This document shows positions 34,289 through 47,836 of a stretch of 64,000 nt of DNA, piece after piece. Source of the stretch: a virus; IMG/VR virus record IMGVR_UViG_3300009610_000003, positions 18,173 through 82,172 of that record; one strand, 5' to 3'. Below the pieces are notes generated by a model. That model searched no databases. It saw only the letters and a list, made by a program, of their open reading frames with translations, and was not told where the DNA came from. The position numbers and the translations under genes were made by a program. Every line of letters starts with the position of its first letter. Positions within the stretch are counted from its first letter, which is position 1.

Positions 34289-34792
34289 TCAGATGCCCCG
34301 GTTCAGTTCCTGCCGCACGGCGCGCACGGCGTCGTCCATGCCCGTGTCGGCGTCGCTGGCGGCAGCGTGGTGGCCGCCGTTCTCGGGCGTGCCGCCATGA
34401 CCGTTGGCAGCAACCTCTTTCGTCCGCTTGCCATAGATGTCGTGAACCCGCTGCATGGCTTCCTCGCGGGTGCAGCCCCAGCCCACGGCGAGCGCGGCGT
34501 AAAGCTCCTGCCCGTCATAGGGCCGCACGGGCTTGCGCAGGCGGTCTGCGACGCAGCGGGCGTAACCGGCGATGTCGTCCCAGTGATCTTCGTGGCTGGG
34601 GTCGCCTGCCAGTATGCGGGCCATCTTGTGGGCGATCATATAGAGCGCGTGCCGCTGGGGGTCGGGCAGGATGGGCCAGTTGCGCTCGCGCTGCATGGCC
34701 CGCAGCATCTCCCACGTCGCCCGTGAATTCTCGTTGAATTCGCCATGCACGGGGGCGCGCTCGCTCATCACCTTGGCGGTCTTGTCCATCAT
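34289..34792 (-). CDS. DUF6378-like all-alpha protein, putative nucleotide hydrolase
   Basis: ER..VHG.F..MIAHKMARIL.GDP...DHWDDIAGYA. Confidence 0.7.
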   Translation of the reverse strand: MMDKTAKVMSERAPVHGEFNENSRATWEMLRAMQRERNWPILPDPQRHALYMIAHKMARILAGDPSHEDHWDDIAGYARCVADRLRKPVRPYDGQELYAALAVGWGCTREEAMQRVHDIYGKRTKEVAANGHGGTPENGGHHAAASDADTGMDDAVRAVRQELNRGI

Positions 34793-35373
34793 GCGCTTTC
34801 CTTCAGGTTGTAGCCCACGGCCCCGGTGCGCCGGTTCATCTGGTACAGCACGTCTTCGTGCCTTGCGTCGGCGCGCTCAATGAACTCATTCACGGCGTTG
34901 TAATCGTCGCGGGTCAATGTTGCCGCGAGCTTCAGGGCGGCCTGTCGCGTGCGCATGACGATGGCGATGGCGTACATATTGCCCATCAGCCGTTCCACCA
35001 TGCCGAACTGCATTATTTCCAAGAGGTCGCACACCTTGATGCGGGCGATCAGGTTTGGATGCAGCGGCGGCAGTTGCGCCAGCTTCAGCTTGTCCATCTC
35101 CCGGCGTTCCAGCCGCTCAACGATGCTCTTGAGGTCGGGATTTTCCGCTTTCACGGGGAACGGGATGTCGCCGACGCCAAGCTCGCCCGCGTCGTGCAGG
35201 CGGATATAGCGTTCGACCGGGCCGCCCAGATCGCCGAAGATGGCCGCGTAGATGCAGGCCATCTGCCAGCTATGCTCAGCCACCGTCTGGGTCTGGATGG
35301 TAGGCCACGTGTGATACCTTCTGGTGCGGCCCGCGAAATACAGGTCGTCGGTCACGAAATCGGTTTGGGTCAT
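34789..35373 (-). CDS. HD-domain 5'-deoxynucleotidase (YfbR-like)
   Basis: RRYHT..QTVAEHSW..LHDAGE..GDIP.PVK..KVCD.LE. Confidence 0.85.
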   Translation of the reverse strand: MTQTDFVTDDLYFAGRTRRYHTWPTIQTQTVAEHSWQMACIYAAIFGDLGGPVERYIRLHDAGELGVGDIPFPVKAENPDLKSIVERLERREMDKLKLAQLPPLHPNLIARIKVCDLLEIMQFGMVERLMGNMYAIAIVMRTRQAALKLAATLTRDDYNAVNEFIERADARHEDVLYQMNRRTGAVGYNLKESA

Positions 35374-35678
35374 GTAGCGTCCTCGTCAACAATGCCTCTT
35401 CCGACCTTGCTTTTACGATCCTTTTTCGTTCCGGGCAAACCTTCGGGCTCAGGTTCGTGGTCTTCCAGCCGCTCGCGCGCCTCGCGCCGCTGCCGGGGTG
35501 GCAGTTCCTTGGCCGCCGACGCAGCCCTCGTCGCCGCCGCCTGACTGACGCGGGCCAGCACTTCGACCTGACCGGTGCCGCTGCACGACAGGCACGGGTT
35601 GCCCGATACCGGGTCGGTGCCCTCGCCAGCGCACGCCTCGCAGTCGCGTACCTTCTTGATCGTCCTGAAAATGCTCAT
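35370..35678 (-). CDS. DnaJ-type zinc-finger protein
   Basis: CEACAGEG..CLSCSGTG. Confidence 0.65.
   Translation of the reverse strand: MSIFRTIKKVRDCEACAGEGTDPVSGNPCLSCSGTGQVEVLARVSQAAATRAASAAKELPPRQRREARERLEDHEPEPEGLPGTKKDRKSKVGRGIVDEDAT
35410..35438 (-). promoter_or_regulatory. AAGGATCG-class promoter inside a CDS, upstream of the HD gene, DUF6378 gene and polymerase
   Basis: TTGCCC-ggaacgaaaAAGGATCG-TAAAAG (17-bp spacer). Confidence 0.55.
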
Positions 35679-35974
35679 TTCCATGTCTCCTTGACGCGCC
35701 AATGTTGAAGCAGGCGGATTTTCCCTGACGAATTCATGCCCGCCAGTTTGACGGGGTCATCAAGGAACCCCTTGTCATGCAGCGGCTTCATGCGCGGCGA
35801 GACAGACCACTTGTCGATGTTCATCTCGGCAGCGATCTGAATTGAAGTCATGTAGCGTGGCCAGCATGTCCGCATGAAATTAAAGACATCCTCTTCCAAT
35901 TTCGATTTCCCAACAATGCTTGCGGCCAGATGTGAAGTGTAGGGGTCGCCCGGTCGGGCTGATGCACTTGTCAT
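35675..35974 (-). CDS. Winged-HTH DNA-binding protein
   Basis: ARPGDP.TSH.AA..MTSIQIAAEM.IDKWSVSPRMKPL..KG. Confidence 0.7.
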   Translation of the reverse strand: MTSASARPGDPYTSHLAASIVGKSKLEEDVFNFMRTCWPRYMTSIQIAAEMNIDKWSVSPRMKPLHDKGFLDDPVKLAGMNSSGKIRLLQHWRVKETWK

Positions 35975-36957
35975 TTCTTCATCCTCCGTTTCAGCCACGC
36001 TGCCGTAGCAATTCGCCAGTCAGGCGCGGCAATTGAATGTGCCCAGTTCAGTGCTTCTTCCCAGTCATGCTCTTTGCGCAGTTTGTTCGCGAGGAACATG
36101 GGCCGCGCCGTGTTGGTCAGGAATTCATTTCGCAGCTTCGGCACCTCGTCGGGGTCGGCGACATAGGCCCTGACATCGGCGTCGAATGTGTAGGGGTCGG
36201 TCACCAGCGGCAGCGTGCCGGGGTAGGCCGGATGACGGGACATCGCGTCAAGGCTCACCAGATGCTTGGCGCTGTCGTACATATGCCAGTTCCAAGAGAA
36301 CTGGGTCATCGTGCCCATGCCGACGCCGATGCGCGCGGCGAGGTATTCCTGCAAGATTGAGAAATGCACGACATTCGCGCCGTAGCAGCCCCAGACGATA
36401 TCGTTGCTGCGGCAGGTGACGCCAAGATCAAGCGCGTTTTTCTGAATGCGCAGGTAAATCTGGGTGTTGCAGGGGCGATCCTTTAAGCCAACGACACCCA
36501 GATCACATGGCGCGTCCCACATCTGGATGACGGCTTGGCGGCTGGTCGGGTCGTCCTGCAAAATGCTAATTACTTTTTTCAACTGGTCTAGCGCCGTGTT
36601 GGTGTAGGCATTTGGGTTCTCGAAATGGCGACGCCACCGGTAGCCGTAGGCCCCGTGCATCTGTCCGTCTTCCTCGGCGAACCGGGCCGAGAAGTCGCCG
36701 ACGAACTGGTCAAGCCATGTCGCGTCGTTCTGCCCGGCGAGCATCCACAGCGCTTCGTGTAAGTGAAATATAGGGTTTGCATCCCTGACCGGGTCGAACA
36801 GCACCCGCTGCATCGGTTGTGCATAGTTGGTGACCACCGGCCACGGCACGACGCGCACGTTACCCGCCCGCGACGGCTCAGGCACGCCGTACATATCAAT
36901 CAGGGTGATTGCCTTCGGCCATGCGTCGTTGACGTTGGTCGCGTGTATCGTCCTCAT
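35971..36957 (-). CDS. Thymidylate-synthase-fold enzyme, probable dUMP hydroxymethylase
   Basis: RDANP.FHL.EALWML.G, GAYGYRWR, SRQAV..MWD, catalytic PCN, RSNDIVWGCYGAN with Asn at the pyrimidine-specificity position, and H.Y. Confidence 0.85.
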   Translation of the reverse strand: MRTIHATNVNDAWPKAITLIDMYGVPEPSRAGNVRVVPWPVVTNYAQPMQRVLFDPVRDANPIFHLHEALWMLAGQNDATWLDQFVGDFSARFAEEDGQMHGAYGYRWRRHFENPNAYTNTALDQLKKVISILQDDPTSRQAVIQMWDAPCDLGVVGLKDRPCNTQIYLRIQKNALDLGVTCRSNDIVWGCYGANVVHFSILQEYLAARIGVGMGTMTQFSWNWHMYDSAKHLVSLDAMSRHPAYPGTLPLVTDPYTFDADVRAYVADPDEVPKLRNEFLTNTARPMFLANKLRKEHDWEEALNWAHSIAAPDWRIATAAWLKRRMKK

Positions 36958-37151
36958 ATCAGCCCTTCTCTCATCGCCAGCCATTCCGGCAGCGTCACGA
37001 TGACGATGTCGCTGCCCCTTTTCCCTTCGATGTCGCACTGGCTCTTGGGTAACCAGACGGCATCTTTTTCCTCGCCGCTGTCGGACACCAGAATAGCCAT
37101 GGGGGTTTCGTGGTGCAGGTGCAGTGTCAGGTCGATTGGCTCGCGGCTCAT
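36954..37151 (-). CDS. Conserved small phage protein
   Basis: HET..AILVSD.G....VWLPKSQ..VTLPEWLA..EGLI. Confidence 0.75.
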   Translation of the reverse strand: MSREPIDLTLHLHHETPMAILVSDSGEEKDAVWLPKSQCDIEGKRGSDIVIVTLPEWLAMREGLI

Positions 37152-37711
37152 AGTCCCAGCAACTCCATGGTCTTGGTCATCGCCTCGGCGCGTGGCAGCA
37201 TGAACACGTTCAGGCCAATTTTCCGGTTGTTCCGGGTCGTGACGATCAGCGACCGGTGCTTGTTCCGGGTGTGAACCTCGTTGAACGGGTTGGGGCTTTG
37301 CGCTGCCTCGCGGCGCGCGTAGATCGACGCCAGACACTCGTCTATCGTGGTGGCCAGCAGGATGACGGTGAGGCCCCCGGCGGCGTCCAGCTTGCGCAGG
37401 CGGGGTTTCCCCCAGCTACCCACCAGCAGCCCTTCAAACAGCACGTTCTGGCCCCGCAGGGCCTCGGCGACGATCAACGCTTCCTGATCGTTGGCCGCCC
37501 CCGGCCACGTCTGCGCGTCGCAGCCACCGGTCGCCTCATCGTAGCGCCCGATGACCGTCAGCTTGGCCTTGTCCCAGATGTAGGCCCCGACCTTGCGCCG
37601 TGGCCCGAGCGGGAGCTTGAGCGCCTTGTCCATGCCCCCGGCCCGTGCCATCGCCTCGCGGGCGATGAAGCTCTTGCCGGAACCCGACGCACCTCTCAAC
37701 AGCACAATCAT
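37148..37711 (-). CDS. P-loop nucleotide kinase of base-modification clusters
   Basis: LRGASGSGKS, IGRY...TGGCD, VLFEGLL, CLASI.ARR. Confidence 0.8.
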   Translation of the reverse strand: MIVLLRGASGSGKSFIAREAMARAGGMDKALKLPLGPRRKVGAYIWDKAKLTVIGRYDEATGGCDAQTWPGAANDQEALIVAEALRGQNVLFEGLLVGSWGKPRLRKLDAAGGLTVILLATTIDECLASIYARREAAQSPNPFNEVHTRNKHRSLIVTTRNNRKIGLNVFMLPRAEAMTKTMELLGL

Positions 37712-38148
37712 GGGCGATCCATTAGATACTGCTTAAAGTATTCGTTGGCGAGCGCGCCCTTCCGAACCTGCTTCACGGCCTCGATTGCCTCGGCTCCGGT
37801 CAGGCCCCGCAGCCGCATCAGGGCCAATGCCGCCACCAACCCCGAGCGGTTGCGTCCGCCCCAGCAATGCACCAGCGCGCAGCCGCCCTCCCGGATGTGG
37901 CGTTCGACACGCACGGCGGCATACTCGGCGACGATTGCCGCTTCGCCCGTGACCTTGCCGTCTGGCATGGTCTTCTGCTCGTACCAGCCCACCAGTTCGC
38001 GCACCCGCGCATCGGGCGTGTGCCACAGGTTCATCACGCCGGTAATGTCATGGTCGCCAATCAGGTAACGCACTTCGTTATCGGTCAAGGTGTGGGTTCG
38101 CGCCGACAGGTACATCCGGCCCGGCATCAACTCGTAGACCCGCATCAT
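37708..38148 (-). CDS. Dual-specificity/PTP-like phosphatase
   Basis: LVHCWGGRNRSG (HCx5R), A.EAV..VRKGALAN..F. Confidence 0.9.
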   Translation of the reverse strand: MMRVYELMPGRMYLSARTHTLTDNEVRYLIGDHDITGVMNLWHTPDARVRELVGWYEQKTMPDGKVTGEAAIVAEYAAVRVERHIREGGCALVHCWGGRNRSGLVAALALMRLRGLTGAEAIEAVKQVRKGALANEYFKQYLMDRP

Positions 38149-39146
38149 GCCGACCATTCCTTCGGATGCGCAAAGTCAGTGGTGGAAAGGTAGTTGAACC
38201 GCAGGTCTGACCACGTGTAGCCATGGTCGGCCAGCGATGCCGCCGCGTCTTTGCGCGGCTTGTCCCAGCCCATCATTTCGCCGAGATGCTTGAACGGGAA
38301 CAGCTTCTTGCGCGCCTGCCAGATGGCCGATGTGTATTCCCACTCGTCCTCGGCCCGCCGGGCATATCTCAGTTCGCTGTCGTGGCTGCGGCCCGGATAG
38401 AACTTCTTGCTTTCCCAGCTTTCGCGGTATTCGCACAGCAGCACCTGAAGCTGGAACATATCGATCTTGATGCCGTGGTCGTCGTCCAGCAGCGCCAGCG
38501 CGTCTTCGCAGCTTTCGTGCGCCAGCTTCAGGGCTTCCTTGGAATTGTCCCTGTTGCCCAGCCCCCGGTCGGGGAACAGGTAGCCGAGCGTGTGCCTCGG
38601 TGACCACGCGGCGAAGGGCCGGATGTCGGGCGTGCGCACCGGCAGGTCGTGGAAGCGCCGCAGGTATTCGATGAGCTTGATGGCCGCGTACCTGCCCACC
38701 GTCTCGATCTTCAGCACGTGTTCCCACGCGATTTCGAACCCCTCTTCCGGGGTGGCCGCGTCAAAGCACCGTTCGCACAGCTTGTCGTAGATGCCGATGA
38801 AGTGCTGGCAGTCGCGCAGGTATTCATACATCTGGTCCGGGCGGCGCGCGGCGCGGCGTTCGATGCGCGTGGTGATGTGGCCTCGGGCAAAGGCGGTGTC
38901 CAGCCAGTGGCGCATCCACTGAGGGCTTTCCATGCACTTGCTGAAGGGCAGGCCGCGCCACAGCACCTCGCCGTAGGGCACGTTGTAGACGCCGATGTAG
39001 CAGCACCCCCGCCATATCGCTTCCTCGTCGCTAGCGGCGTCCTTGGCCATCTCGAATACCGTGGGCAACTGCGGGTCGGGGCCGCCGCTCGCAAGCTCCC
39101 ACTTGCAGAACTCGGCGAAGAATTTCCGGTGTTCCTCGGTGTTCAT
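38145..39146 (-). CDS. aGPT-Pplase2 / amino-acid:DNA transferase-like protein
   Basis: GGPDP, Y.GVYN, HhH-like VGRYAAIKLIEYL, QVLLCEY..FYPGRSHD. Assignment rests on motif resemblance plus gene context. Confidence 0.7.
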   Translation of the reverse strand: MNTEEHRKFFAEFCKWELASGGPDPQLPTVFEMAKDAASDEEAIWRGCCYIGVYNVPYGEVLWRGLPFSKCMESPQWMRHWLDTAFARGHITTRIERRAARRPDQMYEYLRDCQHFIGIYDKLCERCFDAATPEEGFEIAWEHVLKIETVGRYAAIKLIEYLRRFHDLPVRTPDIRPFAAWSPRHTLGYLFPDRGLGNRDNSKEALKLAHESCEDALALLDDDHGIKIDMFQLQVLLCEYRESWESKKFYPGRSHDSELRYARRAEDEWEYTSAIWQARKKLFPFKHLGEMMGWDKPRKDAAASLADHGYTWSDLRFNYLSTTDFAHPKEWSA

Positions 39147-40072
39147 TTCGTGAACCATGACAACTCCAATCCAAAACGCTTGCCCTGACCCTCGGTGCAT
39201 TTGTCGCAGGGTTTCTGCGCCCCCCGGTCACGCGCGATCAGGTTGGCGCGCACCTCGTCGTAGGCGTCCCACAGGTCGGGAAGCGACCGTTCCGGGAAGC
39301 TCCCGATGATGTGGGCATCTCCCCAGTCATCGCAGCAAAAGGGCACCGAGCCGTCGAACCACATCGGCATTTCTCTGAACGGCCTGACGCACATCCGGGC
39401 CAGCGGCGCAGCTACGGGTCGGACGTTTGGATAAATCTTGGATGCCCGGCCCGGCCCTACGTCAGCAAATCCACCTTGGTTGTGGTAGTGCAGGATGACG
39501 TTCTCGCGCGGCACGCGGCCTAGCTCGCTCTTGTAGGTGGTGGCGTCCTTGATGATGAGCGCCCGCCAGTTGGGGCCTCGGTAGCCGTAGGGGCTCATGG
39601 CCTCGTCGCCGAAGAACAGGTCGGCGGCACCCTTGAACAGCACCGTGAACTCGCGCAGGCGCTTGGGTGTGTAGCAGTCGAGCAGGAAGCAGTTGACACC
39701 CTCGGCCTGCGCTTCGGCGACCCATTCCCTAAACAGCGGCAGGCCCAGCACGTTGACCAGATCGCCGTTGGTGCTGACGAGGAACTGTGCCTGCGGCAAC
39801 AGCTTGCGGGCGATGCGGATGAACCTGATGAACTGGGGGTGCATCGTCGGCTCGCCACGGTTGGCGATTTCAATTCTGACCTTCGGTTTCCAATCTCTCA
39901 CGGCCCGACAATAGTCGATCCATAAGTCTTCGTGCATGAACTGGTAGGGGCCTTCGGCCCATGTCTGGTTGCGCAAGCCGCAGAAGACGCATCGCATGGT
40001 GCAGCCGCGCACGAATTCCGGCTTCAGCGTGTACGGCAGATGCCGCCCGCCTGTATTTCCCATCGAAGTCAC
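39143..40072 (-). CDS. Radical SAM enzyme with SPASM/twitch-like C-terminus
   Basis: CTMRCVFC (CxxxCxxC), RGEPTMHP, STNG, CVRPF..DGSVPFCCDDW..PCDKC. Confidence 0.9.
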   Translation of the reverse strand: MTSMGNTGGRHLPYTLKPEFVRGCTMRCVFCGLRNQTWAEGPYQFMHEDLWIDYCRAVRDWKPKVRIEIANRGEPTMHPQFIRFIRIARKLLPQAQFLVSTNGDLVNVLGLPLFREWVAEAQAEGVNCFLLDCYTPKRLREFTVLFKGAADLFFGDEAMSPYGYRGPNWRALIIKDATTYKSELGRVPRENVILHYHNQGGFADVGPGRASKIYPNVRPVAAPLARMCVRPFREMPMWFDGSVPFCCDDWGDAHIIGSFPERSLPDLWDAYDEVRANLIARDRGAQKPCDKCTEGQGKRFGLELSWFTK

Positions 40073-40080
40073 TCCCCTTC

Positions 40081-40223
40081 GAAGAAAACGGCGGCCCAGT
40101 TTTTAAGCTGAGCCGCCGCCCGACAGCGGAACGTGCCGACCAAGGCGCGTCTACCCGCTGTCTTAACCACCTTTCTCAACCCCAAGAAGCCAACCACGGC
40201 CTTCTGGGGGAACCGGGTGGTTA
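40081..40223 (-). promoter_or_regulatory. Structured leader (three hairpins) ending in a terminator-like stem
   Basis: On the minus strand: TAACCACC..GGTGGTTA, GACAGCGG..CCGCTGTC, CGGCGGCTCAG..CTGGGCCGCCG-TTTTCTT. Confidence 0.5.
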
Positions 40224-40553
40224 TGCGTGTATCTGTGTCGGCGACGGACTAAACACGTGGTGCACTATCGGCCCGACGATGAACGTTCCCACATAGTCAT
40301 CGGCAGCGTCGATTGGCACCTCGCCCCCGGTCGCCACCAGCACGATGGCGCGCTTTTCCAGCGGCATGTCCGGGGCGACGAGGAACCACACGCACAGCAC
40401 GCTGTCCGGGTCGGGACCAACGTGCAGTGCTTTCGCGCCCTGCGGTATCTCATGCACCGTCAACTGTTGCGCGGCCACGGGGTATTTCCAGATCGTACCC
40501 ATGGGCGGGCCGTTATCTGGCGCTGGCCCAGCACGGGCGTTTGTCGTTTGCAT
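40221..40553 (-). CDS. Conserved phage hypothetical protein
   Basis: TIWKYP..IPQGA..LHVG..CVW.LV..TG..YVGTF..HHVF. Confidence 0.75.
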   Translation of the reverse strand: MQTTNARAGPAPDNGPPMGTIWKYPVAAQQLTVHEIPQGAKALHVGPDPDSVLCVWFLVAPDMPLEKRAIVLVATGGEVPIDAADDYVGTFIVGPIVHHVFSPSPTQIHA

Positions 40554-40577
40554 GGATGTTCCTTTTCTCATCGGCGA

Positions 40578-40606
40578 AGCATACGATCCTTATTAATTCG
40601 CCGCCA
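40578..40606 (-). promoter_or_regulatory. AAGGATCG-class promoter heading the modification operon
   Basis: TGGCGG-cgaattaatAAGGATCG-TATGCT (17-bp spacer). Confidence 0.6.
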
Positions 40607-40616
40607 GCTTATTCCT

Positions 40617-41756
40617 TTATTTGGTGACCTCGTAGCCCTTGTGAACGACGCCCAGTTTCTCGTCGCCTCGGCCATGGCTGGTGCGCCACCAGCGCTTTGC
40701 CGGGCACTTCTGGCAATGATACCTGTCCGGGGTCACCGGTTCCCACTCATGCGTGCAGGCGGGTATGCGGCGGCTTTGGCACCAGTGCCCGCGCACCGAG
40801 TGGTAGCGGTGGTGCCTGTCGGTGTGTCCGCCCTCGGTGACGCGCCGGTAGCTTTCCTGCGGGCTCAGGTGCAACTTGACGCTGTTGTGGCTGACCAGCA
40901 CCTGACTGTGCCCCTTGAGCAATATGCGCTTGTGCGGCTCGTCAGTGACCATCAGCACGTGCTTCGTGGGCCGCGTCAGCAAGAGCAGCATGATGATGAT
41001 CTGCTTCATGCTGCCAGCGGAAGAGCGCAGGGTTCGCAGCTTGTCCACGACCGTCATCTTGTCGAACGGCGGCTTGCTGTAAAATTCGAAGCTGTGGCTG
41101 CGGCAAATCTCGTTGGCCACATGCGTGTTCCACCACTTCCCCTCAAGACCGGGGTCGCCATAGATCATCTTCCGCAGCATCAGCCGCGACGTGTTCAGTT
41201 CCTGCGCCAGTTCCAGTTCCCGTTCGAACGTCATCGGGCGGTGCAAGTGGTAGATCAGCGGGGTGACGCCAACATCGTCCAGACCGAGTGCCGTGGTGGT
41301 TTTCCGCCGCGCCTCGGACGCCGAGTAGACCTTGCCATGATCGAAGAAGTAGCCCACCCGCGTGTCGGCGGTCGGGTCGTCGGGGTTCATGCCGGGGATG
41401 ACCTCGGCGTAGGCGCGGAAATCCATTTCCAGCCACGTAAGCTGGTGCGGCGGTCGGGCAAATTCATGCTGTTCCAGCATCAGCGGCGCGGCCTTATTGA
41501 CCAGTTCGCCGACCAGACGACTGGCCGGTGCATCCAGCACAAAGCGATGCGCCATGCGCAGGCTGAGCGGCGAGATGCCGCTGTAGTTCAGCGCCTTCTG
41601 GTTGGCCAGCAGCTTGTCGATCAGGTTGGGCTGCGGCTTGGGCTTCCTGACGAAGCCCCGCAGCAAGCCGTCGATGTCTTTCTGGGTGCCGCCGTGCGCC
41701 TGCTTGAGGGCAGTGCGCACGGTCTTTGAGGGGGTGCCAGCGGGGAAGGTGGTCAT
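40617..41756 (-). CDS. Hypothetical protein (379 aa)
   Basis: Long ORF coupled to the helicase. C-terminal HSVRGHW..C.H..C.KC..WWRTSH.RGD motif. Confidence 0.75.
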   Translation of the reverse strand: MTTFPAGTPSKTVRTALKQAHGGTQKDIDGLLRGFVRKPKPQPNLIDKLLANQKALNYSGISPLSLRMAHRFVLDAPASRLVGELVNKAAPLMLEQHEFARPPHQLTWLEMDFRAYAEVIPGMNPDDPTADTRVGYFFDHGKVYSASEARRKTTTALGLDDVGVTPLIYHLHRPMTFERELELAQELNTSRLMLRKMIYGDPGLEGKWWNTHVANEICRSHSFEFYSKPPFDKMTVVDKLRTLRSSAGSMKQIIIMLLLLTRPTKHVLMVTDEPHKRILLKGHSQVLVSHNSVKLHLSPQESYRRVTEGGHTDRHHRYHSVRGHWCQSRRIPACTHEWEPVTPDRYHCQKCPAKRWWRTSHGRGDEKLGVVHKGYEVTK

Positions 41757-43351
41757 GACGCCACCTCTTCCACCGGCTTCTTGGCCGCCTTCATGAGGTC
41801 AGCCGGGGTCGGCATCGGCACGTCGATCAGGGCTTCCTGAGCCCGCGTCACGGCGACATAGGCGAGGTTGATTTCCTGCTCTTGCTGCCATTCCTGAACC
41901 GCACGCGGGGACGGGAGGATTTCGCCACGGCCCAGAATGTGAACCACCGGCCACTCAAGCCCCTTGCTCTTGTGAACGCTGCTCAGGATGACCTGACCAG
42001 CCGAGCCCTCAAGGGCGGTATCGGCGAACATGCCAGACACCATGGTCTGCATCTCGGCGACCGTCTGAAGGCCCTGCTCACGGGCACGTTCCAAGAGGCA
42101 TACGATGGTCGCCTGCTTGTCTTCGTGACGGGCCAGCTTGGCTTCATCGGCCCCGGCCTTGGCACGCTCGCGGGCATCCCACTTGATCAGCTTGGTTTCG
42201 AAAGCGTCGAGGCTCTTGACCTTCCAGCGTCCGACCAGATCAACGAGGCCCTTGCCGATTTCACGGCCTTCGATCTTGGCGGCCTTGCCAGCGCGGATGA
42301 GGCGGAAGCAAAGTTCCACCAGCGGGGCGTTGAAGCGGCACAGGACGGCATGGCCCGGCTGGATGGTATCGACCATCTGGCGGTAGCTGATCGCGCTCAC
42401 CGAGCCTTCCAGCGCCGTAGGTGCGGCGTGGATGTGATCGACGTACTGACGAGCGACGGCAACCACCGCCTGCGGGCAGCGCCATGACACCGACAGCGAC
42501 ATCGTGGCCGCACCGAAAATCTGCCGGATCAAATCAAGCGAGCGGTTATCGGCACCGGTAAATCCGAAAATGGCCTGATGGGGGTCGCCAACCGCGACGA
42601 GCCTGCCCGTGCCCGGCTTGAGCATCCGGCGGGCAATTTCGCGACGAACGGAATTCGTATCCTGCGCCTCGTCAATCAGAACCCAGTCTTTTTTCCAAAA
42701 ACGAAGGTTCATCAGCAGGGGGAGGTAGCACATATCATCGAAGTCAATGATCGTGCGCTGAGCGTTCGAAGCCTTCAGGGCGGCATCGGCGAGCGACACC
42801 AGCGTGTTGATGTCATAGTCGTCGGACAGGCCATCGGCCACATCGTGGCGGTTGATAAGCTCAACCCAGTAATGGGGCTTCACGATTTCGACCAAGCCAC
42901 GGCAAAAGAAACCGGTCTGCTTGGCAAGCGACACCAGCTTGCAGATCGCACCAGCTTCCCCGGCCTCGGGCTCGCGGTTCATGTCCGCGAACATTTCGTT
43001 CACGATGTTCATGACCTTTTTGCCCTTGTCGTCCACCGTGAAACCAGTGGCCTTCAGGGCGTAACGCAGGGCCGAGAAGCCAGCGGAATGGAAAGTAGCA
43101 GCGGTCTTGCCGTTGCTGCCCATGGCTTCCAAGCCCATGTCGGCGAGGCGGCCCTTAAGCTCAGCGGCCATCTTGGTGTTGTAAGCGCCCAAGAAGACTT
43201 CGCCATTCATGCGCTTAACGCCTTCCATCAGGGTGGAAGTCTTGCCAGCGCCCGCGACGGCCTCAAGAACGCATGAGCCCGTGCCGTTAGAAATCCAGTC
43301 AAGGAAGACGGCCTGTTCCGGCGACGGGGTGAAAACTTTGGTGGTGGTCAT
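41753..43351 (-). CDS. UvrD/Rep-like SF1 helicase
   Basis: AVAGAGKT, TFHS, DFDDM, IDEAQD, VGDPHQAIFGF, SVHKSKGLEW, YVAVTRA. Confidence 0.95.
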   Translation of the reverse strand: MTTTKVFTPSPEQAVFLDWISNGTGSCVLEAVAGAGKTSTLMEGVKRMNGEVFLGAYNTKMAAELKGRLADMGLEAMGSNGKTAATFHSAGFSALRYALKATGFTVDDKGKKVMNIVNEMFADMNREPEAGEAGAICKLVSLAKQTGFFCRGLVEIVKPHYWVELINRHDVADGLSDDYDINTLVSLADAALKASNAQRTIIDFDDMCYLPLLMNLRFWKKDWVLIDEAQDTNSVRREIARRMLKPGTGRLVAVGDPHQAIFGFTGADNRSLDLIRQIFGAATMSLSVSWRCPQAVVAVARQYVDHIHAAPTALEGSVSAISYRQMVDTIQPGHAVLCRFNAPLVELCFRLIRAGKAAKIEGREIGKGLVDLVGRWKVKSLDAFETKLIKWDARERAKAGADEAKLARHEDKQATIVCLLERAREQGLQTVAEMQTMVSGMFADTALEGSAGQVILSSVHKSKGLEWPVVHILGRGEILPSPRAVQEWQQEQEINLAYVAVTRAQEALIDVPMPTPADLMKAAKKPVEEVAS

Positions 43352-43525
43352 TGTGGTTGGCTTTCGTGGTTGGTTGGTCGGTGGGGGCCGCTGGTTGGGC
43401 GACCCGATGTGTTCCTTACCCGTGCCCCGTTACGAAGTAAAGGGTTATTCGGATCGTACCGCGATTTTATTTGCCGCCCCCCGCCACGTCTGCTACAGAT
43501 GGTCGTAGCAGCTAACCCATTGAAA

Positions 43526-43987
43526 TCAAAAGGGAATCTCGTCGTCCAGAAGCTTACGTGTGCTTTGCTGCGAGGGCTTGGCCGTGACCTTGACATCGGC
43601 CTTGGGCCGACGCTCTTCCTGCCGGTCAACATCGCTCTGCGTGCTGCCCTGCGACATAAGCTGGACGCTGCCACCGAACCGGGGGACGACGATTTCGGTG
43701 ACCCACCGCTCTTGGTTGTCCCGGTCGAGATACTTGCGGGTTTCAATGGTGCCTTCAATGCACACTGTGTCGCCCTTCTTCGCGTACTGGCGCAGGAAGT
43801 TTGCGCCATGTTCGTTGAAGACGGTTACGTTGTGCCACTGCGTGCGTTCCTGACGCTCGCCCGTCTGCTTGTCCTTCCAGCTTTCGCTGGTCGCCACGCG
43901 ACACGTCACGAAGCCGTCACGGCCCTTGACCTCGGGGTCGGCACCGAGCCGCCCCATGATGATCGCCTTGTTTATGTTGATTGCCAT
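43526..43987 (-). CDS. ssb: Single-stranded DNA-binding protein
   Basis: INKAIIMGRLGADPE, ERTQWHNV, C-terminal DDEIPF. Confidence 0.95.
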   Translation of the reverse strand: MAININKAIIMGRLGADPEVKGRDGFVTCRVATSESWKDKQTGERQERTQWHNVTVFNEHGANFLRQYAKKGDTVCIEGTIETRKYLDRDNQERWVTEIVVPRFGGSVQLMSQGSTQSDVDRQEERRPKADVKVTAKPSQQSTRKLLDDEIPF

Positions 43988-44000
43988 TTCGGTTCCTTCT

Positions 44001-44303
44001 CTAACAGTCATTGACCAGAAGCTGGGTGGCATGGAATGCCGCCTGCATCTGCTTGAAGTCGGGTTTGTAATGCTCGCTGATCGGCTGGCTGGCGTAGCCG
44101 CTGACGATCTGCACGCCACAGCCCTCGCATTCCCACAGGTCGGCCAACCAGACCTTGTAGGGCGTCCAGCGGTGCGGTTCCTGCGTCCCCGGCAGCGCCC
44201 TGTGCGGGATGTCATCCCCTTTGGGCATCATCTCGGTGAGCGCGTAGCCATTCTTCTGGACGCGGAAGAACCGTTGGCAGCGGACGCAGACTGGCTTGGG
44301 CAT
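44001..44303 (-). CDS. Zinc-ribbon protein
   Basis: PVCVRC..ADLWECEGCG, AGGAG RBS. Confidence 0.7.
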   Translation of the reverse strand: MPKPVCVRCQRFFRVQKNGYALTEMMPKGDDIPHRALPGTQEPHRWTPYKVWLADLWECEGCGVQIVSGYASQPISEHYKPDFKQMQAAFHATQLLVNDC

Positions 44304-44611: not shown

Positions 44612-44615
44612 TAGC

Positions 44616-44957
44616 TCAAGTATTCTCCTCTTCCCCTGATGGCGGTTCCCCCAATTGTGATTTACGTTGCTTCCGGCTAAGCTTATATCGTCTCATGATC
44701 TGATTGCGCAGCTTCATGATATGGGCGAGCTTGCAATCTTGAAGATCAATATACACACTATTTTCATGAACGTGACCTTGGGCATAGTCACGGATCATTA
44801 TGGCCATCAGCACATCATCAATTACCATTTTGCCTTCAACAGCTTCAAAGTCATAAATCGCCATTGCATAGCTTTGATATATCGGGTCTTCCCACAGCGC
44901 CTCGTTGATTTCATCAACGGCGTCGATGAGTGTTTCTGCCTTCTTGGCGGTTTCCAT
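44616..44957 (-). CDS. Hypothetical protein, paralog of 46093-46485
   Basis: Shared W E.P.Y, AVEG..V.DD, RDYA, KLA and RRYKL.RK.RK. Noticeably more AT-rich. Confidence 0.7.
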   Translation of the reverse strand: METAKKAETLIDAVDEINEALWEDPIYQSYAMAIYDFEAVEGKMVIDDVLMAIMIRDYAQGHVHENSVYIDLQDCKLAHIMKLRNQIMRRYKLSRKQRKSQLGEPPSGEEENT

Positions 44958-44962
44958 GGCCT

Positions 44963-46024
44963 TTACCCCTTCGCCATTTTACGTTCACGTTCCGCAGCCT
45001 TGGCCGCTGCCGCACGGGCCTTTGCCTCTGCAAAGGTTGCAGGCGGTCGCTGGAACATATCGACCGGCTTTTCCTTCTCGTTGCACAGCGCAAGCTCGTA
45101 ATGCCGGATGATGCGGAACGCCTCGTTGAAGTCGGCCACCAGCTTGGGGCTGGGGTTCAGGTGATGAAGACCATCGGGGTGCAGACATTTGACCAGCTTG
45201 CGATATTCATCAGCCGTCAGCACGCCCTTGCGATGCTTGATGGTGTTGAACAGTTCCTCATATTTCCGGTTCCAAGCAGGAAAGATCATCTCGTCCATGC
45301 GCTTCTGAACCTCAGCTTGCACCGCTGTTTCTAATTCCAGTTGGAACCGCTTTTTTTCAGCGCGTACCATCGCGTCGAACTTCTCCTGCATGGTCTTCGA
45401 CAGTTCAGGCTTGCTCTGGGGCGCATATTCCGCCCGCACACGCTCTTCGGTTTCCCGCCGCACGATTGCTTCCATGGCAATGATCGGGCTGACGTTTGCT
45501 TCCTCGCAGATCAGGGTGCGCGTGATCGGCTCACCCGCCAGCTTGCGCCGGTCATAGGCGTGCAGGGCGCGTTCCAGCGTCTCGCGTTCCTTGGGGTCTG
45601 GGTTGGCGTCAGGTGCCTTGGGCGCGGGCTTGGTGTCCGGGGCCTCGGGCGCGGGCTTGGCCTTGGCCTTCGGTTTCGCCACGTGGCGAAACCTAGACTT
45701 AAACTCCGTGCGGTGGATATGTCGCAAAGATCGCCGCTCGGTGGCTTCAAGCACCGCACGCGCCACCTCGGGCTGCTTACCCATGGCAATGGCGGCAGCA
45801 CGGTCATCGTCCGATAGCGCCAGTTTCTGTTCTTTCAGCCAATCGCCGAATTGCCGGTCAGCCTTGAACATGGCCCGCGCCTCTGCGAGGTACGTACACA
45901 AGTTCAGCGCGCCCCGCGCCCACTCGGCCTTTCCACGTTCACAGGCGAGCAGCGCCCCCCGAATTTCACCAGCAAGCTGTTCCAGCTTGTCGTGGTTCGT
46001 TGTCGATGTCGTCATGTCGTTCAT
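44963..46024 (-). CDS. Putative DNA-binding protein (DUF3102-like N-terminus, J-like HPD C-terminus)
   Basis: LAEARAMF..DRQFGDWL and EYRKLVKCLHPD..FNEAF. Contains palindrome copy 2. Confidence 0.65.
   Translation of the reverse strand: MNDMTTSTTNHDKLEQLAGEIRGALLACERGKAEWARGALNLCTYLAEARAMFKADRQFGDWLKEQKLALSDDDRAAAIAMGKQPEVARAVLEATERRSLRHIHRTEFKSRFRHVAKPKAKAKPAPEAPDTKPAPKAPDANPDPKERETLERALHAYDRRKLAGEPITRTLICEEANVSPIIAMEAIVRRETEERVRAEYAPQSKPELSKTMQEKFDAMVRAEKKRFQLELETAVQAEVQKRMDEMIFPAWNRKYEELFNTIKHRKGVLTADEYRKLVKCLHPDGLHHLNPSPKLVADFNEAFRIIRHYELALCNEKEKPVDMFQRPPATFAEAKARAAAAKAAERERKMAKG
45668..45694. repeat. Perfect 22-bp palindrome, copy 2 (intragenic)
   Basis: GGTTTCGCCACGTGGCGAAACC at 45672-45693. 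Confidence 0.9.
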
Positions 46025-46092
46025 TCCCATAGCCCCGTGAAAGAGGAAGAGGGGGTATCGCCCCTCTTCCAAGCTTCAGTTCCAGTTGCGGA

Positions 46093-46485
46093 TTATTCCT
46101 GTTCGCCGACGCCGCCCTCGGACGGGACGACTTCGCCGCCGACCGTGAACTTGCGCAGCTTGCGCGTCAGCTTGTAGCGCCGCAGCACCACACTCTGAGC
46201 CAGCTTGATGGCGTGCAGTTTCTCGTGTGCCACGCTCGGGAAGTTGTTTTCCTTGGCGTAGTCACGCAGGAACCGGGCGGCTGCATAGTCGTCAGCCACC
46301 AAGGAACCTTCCACAGCGCTGCCGTCTTCAACGGCAGTCAGCAGGCGCGTATAGTCGGGGTTTTCCCATACCAGATCGATGATCTGTTCAACCGTGTCGT
46401 TCAGGTTGGGAAGCTGCTTGACGGCCCGGTTGGCCCGGAACTCGTCGCGGGTCGCCGGAAGCGGCGGAACGTATATGTTTGCCAT
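46093..46485 (-). CDS. Hypothetical protein, paralog of 44616-44957
   Basis: AAGGAG RBS and its own promoter. Confidence 0.8.
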   Translation of the reverse strand: MANIYVPPLPATRDEFRANRAVKQLPNLNDTVEQIIDLVWENPDYTRLLTAVEDGSAVEGSLVADDYAAARFLRDYAKENNFPSVAHEKLHAIKLAQSVVLRRYKLTRKLRKFTVGGEVVPSEGGVGEQE

Positions 46486-46524
46486 TTACTTTCTCCTTCA
46501 CTGGCCACAATGCCAGCGAGGAAT

Positions 46525-46553
46525 ATGATACGATCCTTTTTTCAAACCGGCAA
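46525..46553 (-). promoter_or_regulatory. AAGGATCG-class promoter
   Basis: TTGCCG-gtttgaaaaAAGGATCG-TATCAT (17-bp spacer). Confidence 0.7.
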
Positions 46554-46556
46554 ATT

Positions 46557-47438
46557 TCAACCAGCTTCGGCATAAATTCCGTTTCGAAACAATTGCTTCG
46601 GTCGGCCCTCGCCCAAGCGCGTGCGCTCGTACTTGTCGAATTCGCACAGCACGTTCTGGACATCCTGCCCATCGGGAACGGGCCAGCCCATGTTGACGAA
46701 CAGCGGTTCAAGCGCGTCCTGTAGCTCGCTGACCCGCAACCGGAACTCATCTTCCTTCCAGCTACGATCTTTGGGCAGGCTCATGACCCGGTTCATGCCG
46801 CGCTGGCTTCCCGGCCCGGACGCGCAGAACGTGTTCCAATCTTTCGCTTGTCGCAACACCCCGTGGTGCTTGGTATCGGCGACGATCTGCGCCGACATGA
46901 ACGAACCCAGCCCGTGCCACAGGCCGAGTGCCATGTGCCAGCCCGTCAGCGTGTCGCCAGCCTGCGGCCTGATCTTCTCGCGGCCCTTCCACAACGGCCC
47001 CAGCACATCATGGGCGAGGTACTTGGCCTTGCCGCCGGGCACGCCGCTGTGCGCGCCAATCATGTAGGCCGCGCCGAATGCCTTCTCACCGCGCTTCTGG
47101 CGGCTTTCCATGATTTCGATGAACAGGTCGGCATTCCATGGCAGGGGAACCCCGCCGAACGCTTCCAGCGTCGGGACGTGGTTCACATGCCGGGCAACGG
47201 CGAATGCGTGCCACAGGTCAGGCTCGTCGGCGTGCGGGTCACCCCAGTTCTGGCGCAGCCACGCGGTCACCGCGTCCAATTCCCTGTACACGTTGCAAAA
47301 TCGGAACTTCTGGAAGATCGGGTCGTCCGTCCAGTTCTTGGCAGGCTCCCCGGCTGTGCGCCGGATGTAGATCAGGTGCCGCTCCCGGCTGAAATTCCAC
47401 ACGTCTTCGACGCGCATCCGCTCGTTGATGTCGATCAC
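46557..47438 (-). CDS. aGPT-Pplase1 / 5-hmdU DNA kinase-like protein
   Basis: ERH.IYIRR..G....WTDDPIFQKFRFCNVYRELD, GLGSFMSAQIVAD, GPGS.RG, QNVLCEFDKYER. GTG start overlaps the upstream stop. Confidence 0.85.
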   Translation of the reverse strand: MIDINERMRVEDVWNFSRERHLIYIRRTAGEPAKNWTDDPIFQKFRFCNVYRELDAVTAWLRQNWGDPHADEPDLWHAFAVARHVNHVPTLEAFGGVPLPWNADLFIEIMESRQKRGEKAFGAAYMIGAHSGVPGGKAKYLAHDVLGPLWKGREKIRPQAGDTLTGWHMALGLWHGLGSFMSAQIVADTKHHGVLRQAKDWNTFCASGPGSQRGMNRVMSLPKDRSWKEDEFRLRVSELQDALEPLFVNMGWPVPDGQDVQNVLCEFDKYERTRLGEGRPKQLFRNGIYAEAG

Positions 47439-47779: not shown

Positions 47780-47836
47780 TTAAGCGATCCTTTTTCGGAA
47801 TTGGAAACAACCAGCAACCCAAACATGCTTCAGGGC

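Follow-up and report, generated by a model that had tools for sequence, protein, structure and literature searches.

A phage gene cluster that points to a putative inositol-type modification of thymidine

Results

Organization of the locus

The window analyzed here is a 64,000-nucleotide stretch (positions 18,173 to 82,172) of IMGVR_UViG_3300009610_000003, the complete 82,172-bp genome of an uncultured phage with direct terminal repeats. Judged by the polymerase, terminase and portal, its nearest cultured relatives are phages of Proteobacteria, and a proteobacterial host is probable. Every gene named in the initial annotation of this DNA was found again on the minus strand, at or near its original position. 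Six of them form a run in the order radical SAM enzyme, AADT-family transferase, CX5R phosphatase, P-loop 5-hmdU kinase, small protein and TS-fold enzyme. The stop/start overlaps reported in that annotation are genuine. Direct reading of the sequence revealed ATGA at all five junctions (radical SAM/transferase, transferase/phosphatase, phosphatase/kinase, kinase/small protein and small protein/TS). The small conserved protein (~65 residues, 36954-37151, minus strand) thus overlaps the kinase stop and the TS start; it matches phrog_8389 (1e-10) at residues 62-127 of its long ORF.

The run is continued on the minus strand by a 107-residue protein without a Pfam match (35675-35998) and a 110-residue protein (35370-35702) with a weak zinc-ribbon-like match under the cut-off (PF00684, 21.9 bits), whose homologue cluster c10 occurs in related loci. 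Further downstream are, in order, an HD-domain 5'-deoxynucleotidase-like protein (HD/YfbR-like; 34789-35373; PF12917 2.3e-8, PF13023 6.6e-6), a DUF6378 protein (34289-34792; PF19905 7.3e-8) and a family A DNA polymerase with a 3'-5' exonuclease region (32306-34285; PF00476 6.6e-44). On the other side of the run, a DUF7352 protein (40221-40571, minus strand; PF24043 8.9e-18) also lies upstream of the module in relatives and is matched by their c31 cluster (8.4e-44). Next to it is a 379-residue protein (40617-41756, minus strand) that has no match in Pfam, PHROG or NCBIfam. Language-model features gave an AcrVA2-like lead, with a score of 0.97 to clusters in which 41-58% of the members carry PF26125. 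This protein is kept in three related loci (L094, L095 and L097) and probably lies outside the pathway. The earlier statement that no PLP or FAD enzyme is recognizable holds for the families tried, as PF01266, PF00155 and PF01041 gave no match in the complete genome.

The base-making core

The assignment of the locus to thymidine hypermodification of the M6/PaMx11 type stands: five of its proteins are homologous to PaMx11 gp49, gp50, gp51, gp52 and gp55, and their order is shared. The P-loop kinase (37148-37711, minus strand) aligns by tblastn with PaMx11 positions 39232-39777 (gp49) at 30.7% identity over 98% of the query; Table 1 of PMC8989533 lists gp49 as a 5-hmdU DNA kinase. The helical subunit of the kinase is encoded ~9 kb away from the P-loop subunit and ~7 kb upstream of the coupled run (46557-47438, minus strand; PF18723 9e-34; 34% identity to gp50). 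This gene had been described as aGPT-Pplase1-like. It is present, but PF18723, formerly aGPT-Pplase1, is the helical domain of 5-hmdU DNA kinase in current Pfam naming, and the gene does not encode a second transferase. The N-terminal 160 residues of its long ORF are low-complexity read-through, with a GTG at 47438. The TS-fold enzyme (35971-36957, minus strand; PF00303 6.5e-24, phrog_5131 1.6e-89) is 38% identical to gp51 and, from its gene context, is presumed to be a dUMP hydroxymethylase. The polymerase is 33% identical to gp55, and the HD protein has weak homology to gp52.

The transferase and the phosphatase

The transferase (38145-39146, minus strand) matches PF18724 (aGPT-Pplase2) with an E-value of 1.6e-5, its score of 25.2 bits falling slightly short of the 26.2-bit cut-off; the domain is present in many of its homologues. 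The AF2 model (pLDDT 96.8) has PaMx11 gp46, also called PUGT (8Z2N/8Z2M), as its top three PDB matches in Foldseek (prob 1.0, TM 0.54/0.61, E 2.5e-3), and no PDB match at E 0.001 or better. gp46 is out of reach of profile searches and has no detectable sequence similarity to the transferase clade. The PUGT residues Asp24, Arg94, Arg97, Trp146, Lys150 and Cys247, the positions mutated in PMC11472151, map to clade-conserved columns in a colinear but non-significant hhalign alignment. The predicted AADT fold bears out the initial assignment as an aGPT-Pplase2-like transferase, and in these comparisons the enzyme is a member of a distinct AADT-family clade tied to the phosphatase.

The phosphatase (37708-38148, minus strand) is a Cys-X5-Arg enzyme of the dual-specificity type (PF00782, 39.7 bits against a cut-off of 33.5; motif HCWGGRNRS). 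It matches protein-tyrosine phosphatases in the PDB at an E-value of 5e-8, and the solved structures closest to it are those of generic protein-tyrosine and dual-specificity phosphatases. The catalytic Cys and Arg, together with a D-G loop, are invariant in all 15 aligned relatives. In the 55 IMG/VR viral loci retrieved with a transferase profile, the phosphatase directly follows the transferase in 52, and the transferase adjoins the phosphatase in 21 of the 21 loci retrieved with a phosphatase pattern. Adjacency within the module is kept in three gene orders, down to ~30% identity. The two proteins are fused in four loci, and in seven of the 120 homologues listed, with the phosphatase at the C-terminus of the transferase, which favors an action on the transferase product. 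Its genomic distribution marks the phosphatase as the near-obligate companion of this transferase clade.

The radical SAM enzyme

The first gene of the run encodes a radical SAM enzyme (39143-40072, minus strand; PF04055, 39.7 bits against a cut-off of 29.5; PF13186, 25.2 against 21.5). Translation likely begins at an ATG near 40063 that follows a GGGGAG ribosome-binding site. The CX3CX2C motif is located at residues 24-31, and further conserved cysteines are Cys228, Cys246/247, Cys289 and Cys292. The C-terminal domain contains only five conserved cysteines, aligned to the four ligands of the single twitch cluster in BtrN. Therefore the enzyme, previously called a SPASM protein, is of the twitch type with one auxiliary cluster and not full SPASM. 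A profile of its family matched BtrN over both domains at an E-value of 1.6e-17, the next best PDB match being at 1e-3. The AF2 model is of moderate confidence (pLDDT 78), and its top Foldseek match is again BtrN (4M7T; E 1.2e-9, TM 0.59/0.73). SpeY, DesII and anSME come after BtrN among its relatives.

This enzyme is found in 9 of the 55 transferase loci and is missing from 46. In a set of 80 loci containing the radical SAM gene, its neighbor is a different transferase, the TET-associated glycosyltransferase (TAGT), in 54; the kinase helical subunit is present in 56 and the TS-fold gene in 53. In a quick tree, the transferase-linked radical SAM enzymes cluster (9 rows, one change, support 75). 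The initial annotation treated the phosphatase and the radical SAM enzyme as a tailoring pair. Each is linked to the transferase in relatives, but they do not form an evolutionary pair. As judged by these loci, there are two separate linkages: that of the phosphatase is near-obligate, and the radical SAM enzyme is an optional member here whose usual partner elsewhere is TAGT.

Inositol genes in related phages

In 27 of the 55 loci, the gene directly preceding the transferase encodes an Ino1-type inositol-phosphate synthase, and the closest full-length relative has the gene order synthase-radical SAM-transferase-phosphatase. All six synthases scanned match PF01658 at ~1e-36; M. tuberculosis Ino1 (1GR0) is matched at 3.5e-136. 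The phage synthase scores 492 bits against TIGR03450, under the NCBIfam equivalog cut-off of 638 bits. The window transferase is 57-61% identical to the synthase-linked transferases of L092-L098, and 59% identical to that of the relative with both synthase and radical SAM enzyme. In four loci the transferase adjoins a cluster represented by a homologue of IolG, the inositol 2-dehydrogenase (TIGR04380 2.5e-100). It precedes an uncharacterized gene, c15, in L140 and L143, and the radical SAM gene precedes this same gene in L111, L115 and L116. The IolG homologue holds the slot of the radical SAM enzyme in other loci. Genes of the O-methyltransferase type are also part of the module, those of FkbM in 11 loci and those of class I in 4.

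The synthase is absent from the phage studied here: neither PF01658 nor the synthase of a relative gave a match in the complete 82,172-bp genome, and IolG-type (PF01408) and IMPase (PF00459) families were not found in it either. Among 23 related records without a flanking synthase, three of them complete genomes, only one has a synthase elsewhere, and the phosphatase is therefore kept in the absence of a phage synthase.

Discussion

The run is best explained as a phage operon, coupled at the level of translation, that hypermodifies thymidine after replication, and we consider it somewhat better than an even chance that its product is a cyclitol (inositol-derived) adduct. In the proposed pathway, the TS-fold enzyme would generate 5-hydroxymethyl-dUMP for incorporation by the polymerase, the two-part kinase (37148-37711 and 46557-47438) would phosphorylate 5-hmdU in DNA to 5-PmdU, and the AADT-fold transferase would exchange the phosphate for a nucleophile, as suggested by homology to the PaMx11 and M6 enzymes. 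Comparative genomics suggests the following steps. The nucleophile may be a hydroxyl of myo-inositol 3-phosphate, the CX5R phosphatase would strip the ring phosphate from the DNA-bound adduct, and the BtrN-like twitch radical SAM enzyme would oxidize a single ring hydroxyl to the ketone and so yield an adduct of the inosose type, a step that an NAD-dependent IolG homologue appears to perform in other members. The initial annotation had listed a polyol or sugar phosphate, unmasked and then oxidized, among the possible groups. This proposal gains strong comparative support from the synthase in 27 of the 55 loci, the IolG homologue in the radical SAM slot and the relationship to BtrN. Against the reading stand the poor prediction of chemistry from radical SAM folds and the absence of this enzyme from 46 of the 55 transferase loci. 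Since the complete genome has no synthase, the donor in this particular phage is uncertain; it would have to come from the host or be a related phospho-polyol, and supply of inositol phosphate by a proteobacterial host is likewise uncertain. Taken together, the enzyme set and the synthase of the relatives point to an undescribed, still putative inositol-type DNA base, and our literature search found no paper describing such a base.

The role of the phosphatase could be different. In the canonical inositol route a synthase is followed by a monophosphatase, and the same adduct would be obtained if the phosphatase took the place of IMPase, acting on free inositol phosphate before the transfer, and free myo-inositol was then attached. 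The IMPase family PF00459 is missing from the genome, and the order synthase-transferase-phosphatase is compatible with either sequence of events. However, phosphates borne on polymers or lipids are common targets of dual-specificity-type phosphatases, several phages have the phosphatase fused to the C-terminus of the DNA transferase, and the enzyme is retained in complete genomes without synthase. We regard this order as unlikely. An alternative already raised in the initial annotation is that the phosphatase edits unreacted 5-PmdU, or trims a pyrophosphoryl form, and thereby keeps a labile charged intermediate out of packaging; a phosphate on the donor would then be unnecessary. Its persistence in synthase-less phages, this one included, and the position of its gene between transferase and kinase in most loci agree with such a function. 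A general clean-up enzyme, however, is expected neither to be confined to one transferase clade, as in all 21 loci of our scans, nor to cluster with synthase, IolG and O-methyltransferase genes. Furthermore, the PaMx11 cluster lacks the phosphatase despite the same kinase chemistry, and L136, L140 and L143 retain the transferase without it. Editing therefore seems quite unlikely.

It is also conceivable that this synthase-less phage uses another phospho-metabolite available in any host, such as glycerol phosphate, a sugar phosphate, phosphoserine or phosphoethanolamine, which is unmasked by the phosphatase and remodeled by the radical SAM enzyme. The complete genome without a synthase, the probably proteobacterial host and the amino acids or amines used by the characterized AADTs in Table 1 of PMC8989533 are in line with such a donor. 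We nevertheless hold it to be decidedly unlikely, as there is little scope for a different donor at 57-61% identity to synthase-linked transferases, a ring polyol is a better match for a BtrN-like radical SAM enzyme than an amino acid would be, and no PLP enzyme for amino-acid tailoring was found with PF00155 and PF01041. Finally, the phosphatase and the radical SAM enzyme could be in the operon by chance and have no part in DNA modification, the former being a host-takeover protein phosphatase or an RNA-end phosphatase and the latter directed at nucleotides. Viperin-like enzymes are among the weaker matches of the radical SAM enzyme, and the closest solved structures to the phosphatase are generic. 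The conserved adjacency across divergent loci and gene orders, the phosphatase-transferase fusions, the ATGA coupling and the frequent company of the radical SAM gene with the kinase helical subunit (56/80) and the TS-fold gene (53/80) make this extremely improbable.

Comparison with characterized systems places the putative cyclitol pathway among known hypermodifications. The 5-AcNmdU cluster of Pseudomonas phage PaMx11 comprises gp46 (AADT/PUGT), gp47 (flavin lyase), gp48 (acetyltransferase), gp49 (kinase), gp50, gp51 (TS-fold), gp52 (HD) and gp55 (polymerase), the roles of gp46 and gp49 being given in Table 1 of PMC8989533. Backbone and gene order agree in both loci, running from the transferase through the tailoring slot to the P-loop kinase, then to the TS-fold enzyme and the HD protein, and finally to the polymerase. 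For the five proteins with homologues among gp49-gp52 and gp55, identities range from 26 to 38%, and the modeled window transferase has the gp46 fold. The tailoring slot contains the flavin lyase and acetyltransferase in PaMx11, whereas it contains the CX5R phosphatase in the window, where a BtrN-like radical SAM enzyme precedes the transferase and the helical kinase subunit has shifted 9 kb away. The donor is glycine in PaMx11 and presumably a cyclitol phosphate here.

The 5-NedU pathway of Pseudomonas phage M6 (gp51 AADT, gp52 PLP decarboxylase, gp53 radical SAM isomerase, gp54 kinase) is likewise a thymidine hypermodification in which, as described in PMC8989533 (section 18), a radical SAM enzyme acts on the DNA-bound adduct. 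According to the same source, gp53 resembles spore photoproduct lyase, whereas the window enzyme resembles BtrN and carries a twitch domain. A search of 50,697 phage records with the window enzyme matched only one unrelated record, so gp53 is not among its homologues at the sensitivity of this search. M6 also differs in its PLP decarboxylase, an enzyme type not found here with PF00155 and PF01041. BtrN itself is the 2-deoxy-scyllo-inosamine dehydrogenase of butirosin biosynthesis, and SpeY is also a twitch dehydrogenase. The CX3CX2C motif and the four twitch-cluster cysteines of BtrN align with the window enzyme, and the BtrN substrate is a cyclitol. Their identity is only 14-17%, however, and the substrate of BtrN is a free small molecule; the putative substrate here would be tethered to DNA.

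The 5-NeOmdU pathway of Salmonella phage ViI employs the kinases gp67 and gp243, the serine:DNA transferase gp247 and the PLP decarboxylase gp226. It differs in its amino-acid donor and in tailoring by PLP-dependent decarboxylation, and the ViI genes named in main-text passages of PMC8989533 include no phosphatase, synthase or radical SAM enzyme of the window type. It does provide a precedent for the predicted linkage. The ViI transferase joins a hydroxyl oxygen to the C5-methylene to form O-serinyl-T (PMC8989533, section 16), and an inositol ether would require this same type of oxygen-to-C5-methylene bond.

Gene organization

The source record, an IMG/VR virus, is 82,172 bp long, carries direct terminal repeats and has a completeness rating of 100%; the window covers its bases 18173-82172. 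Every long gene from 32306 to about 51000 lies on the minus strand. Read along that strand, the region encodes a PF18723 protein (46557-47438), a 369-aa protein without assignment (44963-46072), an SSB (43526-44215), a UvrD-type helicase (41753-43351), a 379-aa protein without assignment (40617-41756), a DUF7352 protein (40221-40571), a radical SAM enzyme (rSAM; 39143-40072), a PF18724-like transferase (38145-39146), a Cys-X5-Arg phosphatase (37708-38148), a P-loop kinase (37148-37711), a small protein of ~65 aa (36954-37151), a TS-fold enzyme (35971-36957), two more small proteins (35675-35998 and 35370-35702), an HD nucleotidase-like protein (34789-35373), a DUF6378 protein (34289-34792) and polymerase A (32306-34285). 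The overlapping operon described in the initial annotation is borne out by the gene calls and by ATGA stop/start overlaps, read directly, at five junctions (rSAM/transferase, transferase/phosphatase, phosphatase/kinase, kinase/small protein and small protein/TS-fold enzyme). Upstream of the rSAM gene there is a 150-bp gap with a GGGGAG site, and no terminator-like sites were found on the coding strand within the coupled run. A near-identity DNA search with positions 36000-42000 gave zero matches in 50,697 phage records.

The 379-aa and 369-aa proteins were considered as pathway members and not counted, as iterated HMM searches with them matched the closest relative only. The 379-aa protein has a Cys/His-rich C-terminus and no match in Pfam, PHROG or NCBIfam; its language-model features score 0.97 to clusters, 41-58% of these with PF26125 (AcrVA2-like anti-CRISPR). 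It is kept in three relatives, placed between the helicase and the modification module. Two very long ORFs lie beyond the operon, at 6292-13962 (minus strand, 2,556 aa) and 60024-63686 (minus strand, 1,220 aa).

A 5-hmdU-based system, in the work of Lee et al. from 2018 and 2021, is said to consist of a TS-fold dUMP hydroxymethylase near both the cluster and the polymerase, a 5-hmdU DNA kinase and an AADT. The P-loop kinase of the window is a full-length homologue (30.7% identity) of gp49 from the Pseudomonas phage PaMx11, which Table 1 of PMC8989533 enters as a 5-hmdU DNA kinase. Homologues of the PF18723 protein, TS-fold enzyme, HD protein and polymerase are also found in PaMx11 (gp50, gp51, gp52 and gp55, respectively). 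The TS-fold gene is located 1.7 kb from polymerase A, and sequence alone does not tell hydroxymethylase from methylase activity in its product. The PF18723 match of the protein at 46557-47438 has an E value of 9e-34, and the current Pfam name of this family is helical domain of 5-hmdU DNA kinase. Therefore, the aGPT-Pplase1-like gene noted earlier is indeed present upstream, but by this naming it is the second, helical subunit of the kinase, displaced by about 9 kb. Both subunits of the 5-hmdU DNA kinase are predicted to be encoded. The longest ORF of the helical subunit (46557-47921, minus strand) starts 160 codons too early, in low-complexity read-through sequence that it shares with the upstream helicase gene; the true start is the GTG at 47438 or an ATG a few codons later.

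The transferase and the phosphatase

The transferase scores 25.2 bits against PF18724, one bit short of the Pfam gathering cut-off of 26.2. PF18724 is above the cut-off in seven of the eight longer homologues scanned, and most homologues among those listed (120 of 145 found) carry a precomputed PF18724 assignment. An AlphaFold model with an alignment of 40 of these 120 homologues (A2) as input has a pLDDT of 96.8. When the model was compared with the PDB by Foldseek, the top three matches were to PaMx11 gp46/PUGT (8Z2M, 8Z2N; probability 1.00, TM 0.54/0.61, ~300 columns, E 2.5e-3), with DNA glycosylases ranking next. Sequence and profile searches against the PDB gave nothing relevant, and gp46 was reached by fold comparison only. 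PUGT residues shown to matter in PMC11472151 are D24, R94, H95, R97, L142, W146, K150, E243 and C247. With hhalign, PUGT and the transferase clade gave a colinear but non-significant alignment (probability 0.25%); in it, D24, R94, R97, K150 and C247 each meet the identical residue at a conserved position, W146 is opposite an invariant Tyr, and H95 and E243 are not preserved. We accept the transferase as an AADT-fold enzyme of a separate clade. The AADT-family assignment of 38145-39146, on which the initial annotation had staked its proposal, is upheld by the gp46 fold and by PF18724 in the homologues.

The phosphatase carries the motif HCWGGRNRS and matches PF00782 with 39.7 bits (cut-off 33.5). 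The Cys, the Arg and a D-G loop ~30 residues upstream are invariant in all 15 relatives aligned, and the His before the Cys is not conserved. With its C-X5-R(S/T) P-loop and general-acid Asp loop, the protein is predicted to be a Cys-based phosphatase of the dual-specificity/PTP type. Several phosphatases that act on inositol phosphates and phosphoinositides belong to the CX5R type.

A single-sequence search of IMG/VR with the transferase gave no confirmed locus; a later profile scan with the transferase alignment gave 55 loci. The phosphatase gene is immediately 3' of the transferase gene in 52 of them (exceptions L136, L140 and L143), and the two share a single open reading frame in L101, L102, L137 and L138. 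Among the 120 homologues listed, seven are transferase-phosphatase fusions of 487-507 aa, in which the C-terminal part aligns with the full length of the window phosphatase (35-44% identity). A reverse pattern scan from the phosphatase found 21 loci, all with an adjoining transferase. The linkage in relatives expected by the initial annotation is thereby confirmed, and the phosphatase appears to belong with the transferase. Homing-endonuclease-type genes occur in or beside the module (P0059; L131:9341-10117; L100, L117, L130 and L141). One transferase carries an N-terminal NUMOD3 fusion, and homologues of group I intron endonucleases were seen as well.

The radical SAM enzyme

The rSAM protein has the CX3CX2C cysteines (C24, C28 and C31), matches PF04055 above the cut-off and has a fold that matches radical SAM enzymes. 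The SPASM label given to it earlier does not hold. PF13186 (SPASM) is matched with 25.2 bits (cut-off 21.5); the seven-cysteine motif is absent, and the only conserved cysteines of the C-terminal domain (C228, C246, C247, C289 and C292) align with the ligands of the single twitch cluster in BtrN. The rSAM alignment (A1) used 25 of 40 homologues. A profile of the family matched BtrN in the PDB with an E value of 1.6e-17, with the core, the twitch domain and the auxiliary-cluster cysteines all aligned; the next match was at 1e-3. The top match of the rSAM model (pLDDT 78) is BtrN with bound 2-deoxy-scyllo-inosamine (4M7T; E 1.2e-9, TM 0.59/0.73), followed by the twitch dehydrogenase SpeY, DesII and anSME. 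The protein resembles, in sequence and predicted fold, the BtrN/SpeY-type twitch dehydrogenases, which oxidize a secondary alcohol on a cyclitol or sugar; this is a resemblance only. Its close protein clusters, about 40, are all metagenomic, with no homologue from a cultured phage. By tblastn against 50,697 phage records, the only record matched was that of an unannotated faecal phage; M6-like phages gave no match.

Scanning IMG/VR with a profile gave 124 rSAM relatives, and 80 were kept as loci; these 80 and the 55 transferase loci contain some near-duplicate contigs and have six contigs in common. The PF18723 kinase subunit is found in 56 of the 80 rSAM loci, the TS-fold gene in 53 and polymerase A in 41, and therefore the rSAM family belongs to thymidine hypermodification clusters. 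Only eight of the 80 contain the transferase and only seven the phosphatase, which then lie 1-2 genes from rSAM in three different orders. From the transferase side, rSAM is present in only 9/55 loci. In a quick tree of the 68 distinct rSAM proteins left after identical sequences and those shorter than 230 aa were dropped, the nine transferase-linked ones are on one side of a branch with support 75, and TAGT- and TET-linked members make up a starred group. This distribution suggests that rSAM is a mobile module separate from the transferase-phosphatase pair.

The neighbour of rSAM in 54/80 loci (44/68 distinct sequences) is a protein of ~270 aa, and all 30 sampled match PF20691, the TET-associated glycosyltransferase (TAGT). 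The sample (alignment A3) was drawn from 40 de-duplicated TAGT-like ORFs of the 54 loci, with fragments and near-copies left out. These loci lie within L020-L088 (for example L040:6962-11084 and L032:7276-9030) and are usually arranged as helical kinase subunit, TAGT, rSAM, TS-fold enzyme and polymerase. The possibility that the TAGT-like partners are divergent AADTs was rejected, as hhalign to the transferase clade shows no relation (probability 0.2%). The rSAM-TAGT pairing looks like a separate, larger and uncharacterized class of thymidine hypermodification, perhaps with an oxidized sugar on 5-hmdU.

A Tet/JBP oxygenase is encoded in eight rSAM loci (L028, L031, L036, L062, L063, L067, L072 and L073). 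An oxygenase of this type also accompanies the transferase-phosphatase module in L118, L119, L123, L124, L128, L135 and L139, and a TS-fold gene was not seen in the flank. In these seven loci, the source of 5-hmdU may be thymine oxidized in situ. A second protein, of ~460-500 aa and matching radical SAM only weakly (18-19 bits, short of the cut-off), is located near the BtrN-like rSAM in 10 loci, for example L011:11133-12506, L016:2410-3684, L022:5870-7390, L052:5906-7348 and L103:9245-10618.

Inositol-linked genes in related phages

In the closest relatives that lack rSAM, the transferase is immediately preceded by a gene of ~370 aa. Each of the six scanned matches PF01658 (myo-inositol-1-phosphate synthase), with E values of 2e-33 to 2e-36. 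Two of the phage synthases match TIGR03450 (mycothiol-type Ino1) with 492-493 bits, under the equivalog cut-off of 638, and one matches M. tuberculosis Ino1 (1GR0) with an E value of 3.5e-136 over 352 residues. An HMM of the six synthases located the gene in 27/55 transferase loci; its median distance upstream is 1.2 kb. In the closest full-length relative, a record of 78,961 bp, the order is synthase-rSAM-transferase-phosphatase-kinase-TS; its rSAM and that of the window share 74% identity.

Other genes adjoin the transferase in subsets of the loci; each was labelled from one scanned representative per cluster. A homologue of IolG, the inositol 2-dehydrogenase (TIGR04380, E 2.5e-100, 335 bits vs a cut-off of 355), occurs in L106, L113, L140 and L143, an FkbM-type methyltransferase in 11 loci (L104, L107, L109, L117-L119, L123, L129, L131, L132 and L139), and a class-I methyltransferase in four (L105, L106, L108 and L110). 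The order is transferase-IolG-c15 in L140 and L143, c15 being a gene cluster of the relatives, and transferase-phosphatase-rSAM-c15 in L111, L115 and L116. Their shared position before c15 suggests that the NAD enzyme and rSAM hold the same slot. The presence of these IolG, FkbM and class-I genes beside the transferase implies a family of related cyclitol adducts.

Two features set the window phage apart: its operon opens with rSAM, and it lacks the synthase. In its complete 82,172-bp genome, neither PF01658 nor the synthase of a relative has a match, and PF01408, PF00459, PF01266, PF00155 and PF01041 are likewise without matches; in the window, nothing convincing came from HMMs of five gene clusters of the relatives (synthase, IolG, FkbM, class-I methyltransferase and c15). 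Among 23 related records without a flanking synthase, three of them complete genomes, only one has a synthase elsewhere. Judged by polymerase (34-37%), terminase (49%) and portal (35%), the closest phages in culture are distant and have proteobacterial hosts, and therefore a supply of inositol phosphate by the host is not assured.

Discussion

Combining the gene neighbourhoods and the predicted folds, we tentatively propose, with somewhat less than even confidence, that phages of this group carry myo-inositol ether-linked to the thymine methyl carbon, and that the window phage oxidizes this adduct to an inosose with a radical SAM dehydrogenase that works on DNA. The pathway as far as 5-PmdU, the phosphorylated 5-hmdU in DNA, is predicted from homology to characterized enzymes; the steps beyond it we infer. 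In the relatives, the synthase would make inositol 3-phosphate, and the AADT-fold enzyme would couple a hydroxyl of this compound to the activated C5-methylene. A passage of PMC8989533 describes a like linkage with the serine hydroxyl, made by gp247 of phage ViI. The phosphatase would then take off the ring phosphate, and optional enzymes may afterwards oxidize or methylate the ring. The linkages of the synthase, phosphatase, rSAM or IolG, and methyltransferases fit such a single pathway.

The phosphatase could also act before transfer, on the free inositol phosphate; this order is less favoured because the phosphatase is fused to the transferase in some relatives. The synthase-less genome and the proteobacterial relatives keep alive two other explanations for the window phage. 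The phosphatase may edit unreacted 5-PmdU, although in our scans the phosphatase is confined to this transferase clade, and the PaMx11 cluster manages without one. The phage may instead draw on another phospho-donor.

To our knowledge, the known thymidine hypermodifications have amino acids or polyamines as their building blocks. If the proposed inositol ether is correct, it would be the first cyclitol-modified nucleobase and would widen natural DNA chemistry; AADT-family enzymes would be found to take a phospho-polyol, the first non-amino-acid phospho-donor in the family; a CX5R, dual-specificity phosphatase would for the first time be seen to act on a DNA adduct; and a BtrN-type radical SAM dehydrogenase would work on a polymer-bound substrate. 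The resulting base would be bulky and hydroxyl-rich or keto-bearing, and may be one that restriction enzymes and CRISPR nucleases do not tolerate. The rSAM-TAGT pairing would represent a second, larger class of oxidized-sugar thymidine modifications. With its small gene set, the hypothesis lends itself to direct tests on 5-hmdU DNA in lysates.

Our literature search found no paper that ties inositol, a CX5R phosphatase or a BtrN/SPASM-type radical SAM enzyme to 5-hmdU hypermodification; the metagenomic clusters in Figure 2 and the supplement of PMC8989533, which were outside the search, may include such contigs. Section 21 of that paper lists metagenomic combinations with radical SAM, PLP and flavin enzymes and with amidoligase and glutaminotransferase domains, and mentions neither a phosphatase nor an inositol enzyme. 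Compared with known systems, the window rSAM differs from M6 gp53, the radical SAM isomerase of the 5-NedU pathway, to which it has no relation at tblastn sensitivity and which a passage of PMC8989533 likens to spore photoproduct lyase. The order of the window genes matches that of PaMx11 from gp46 to gp55.
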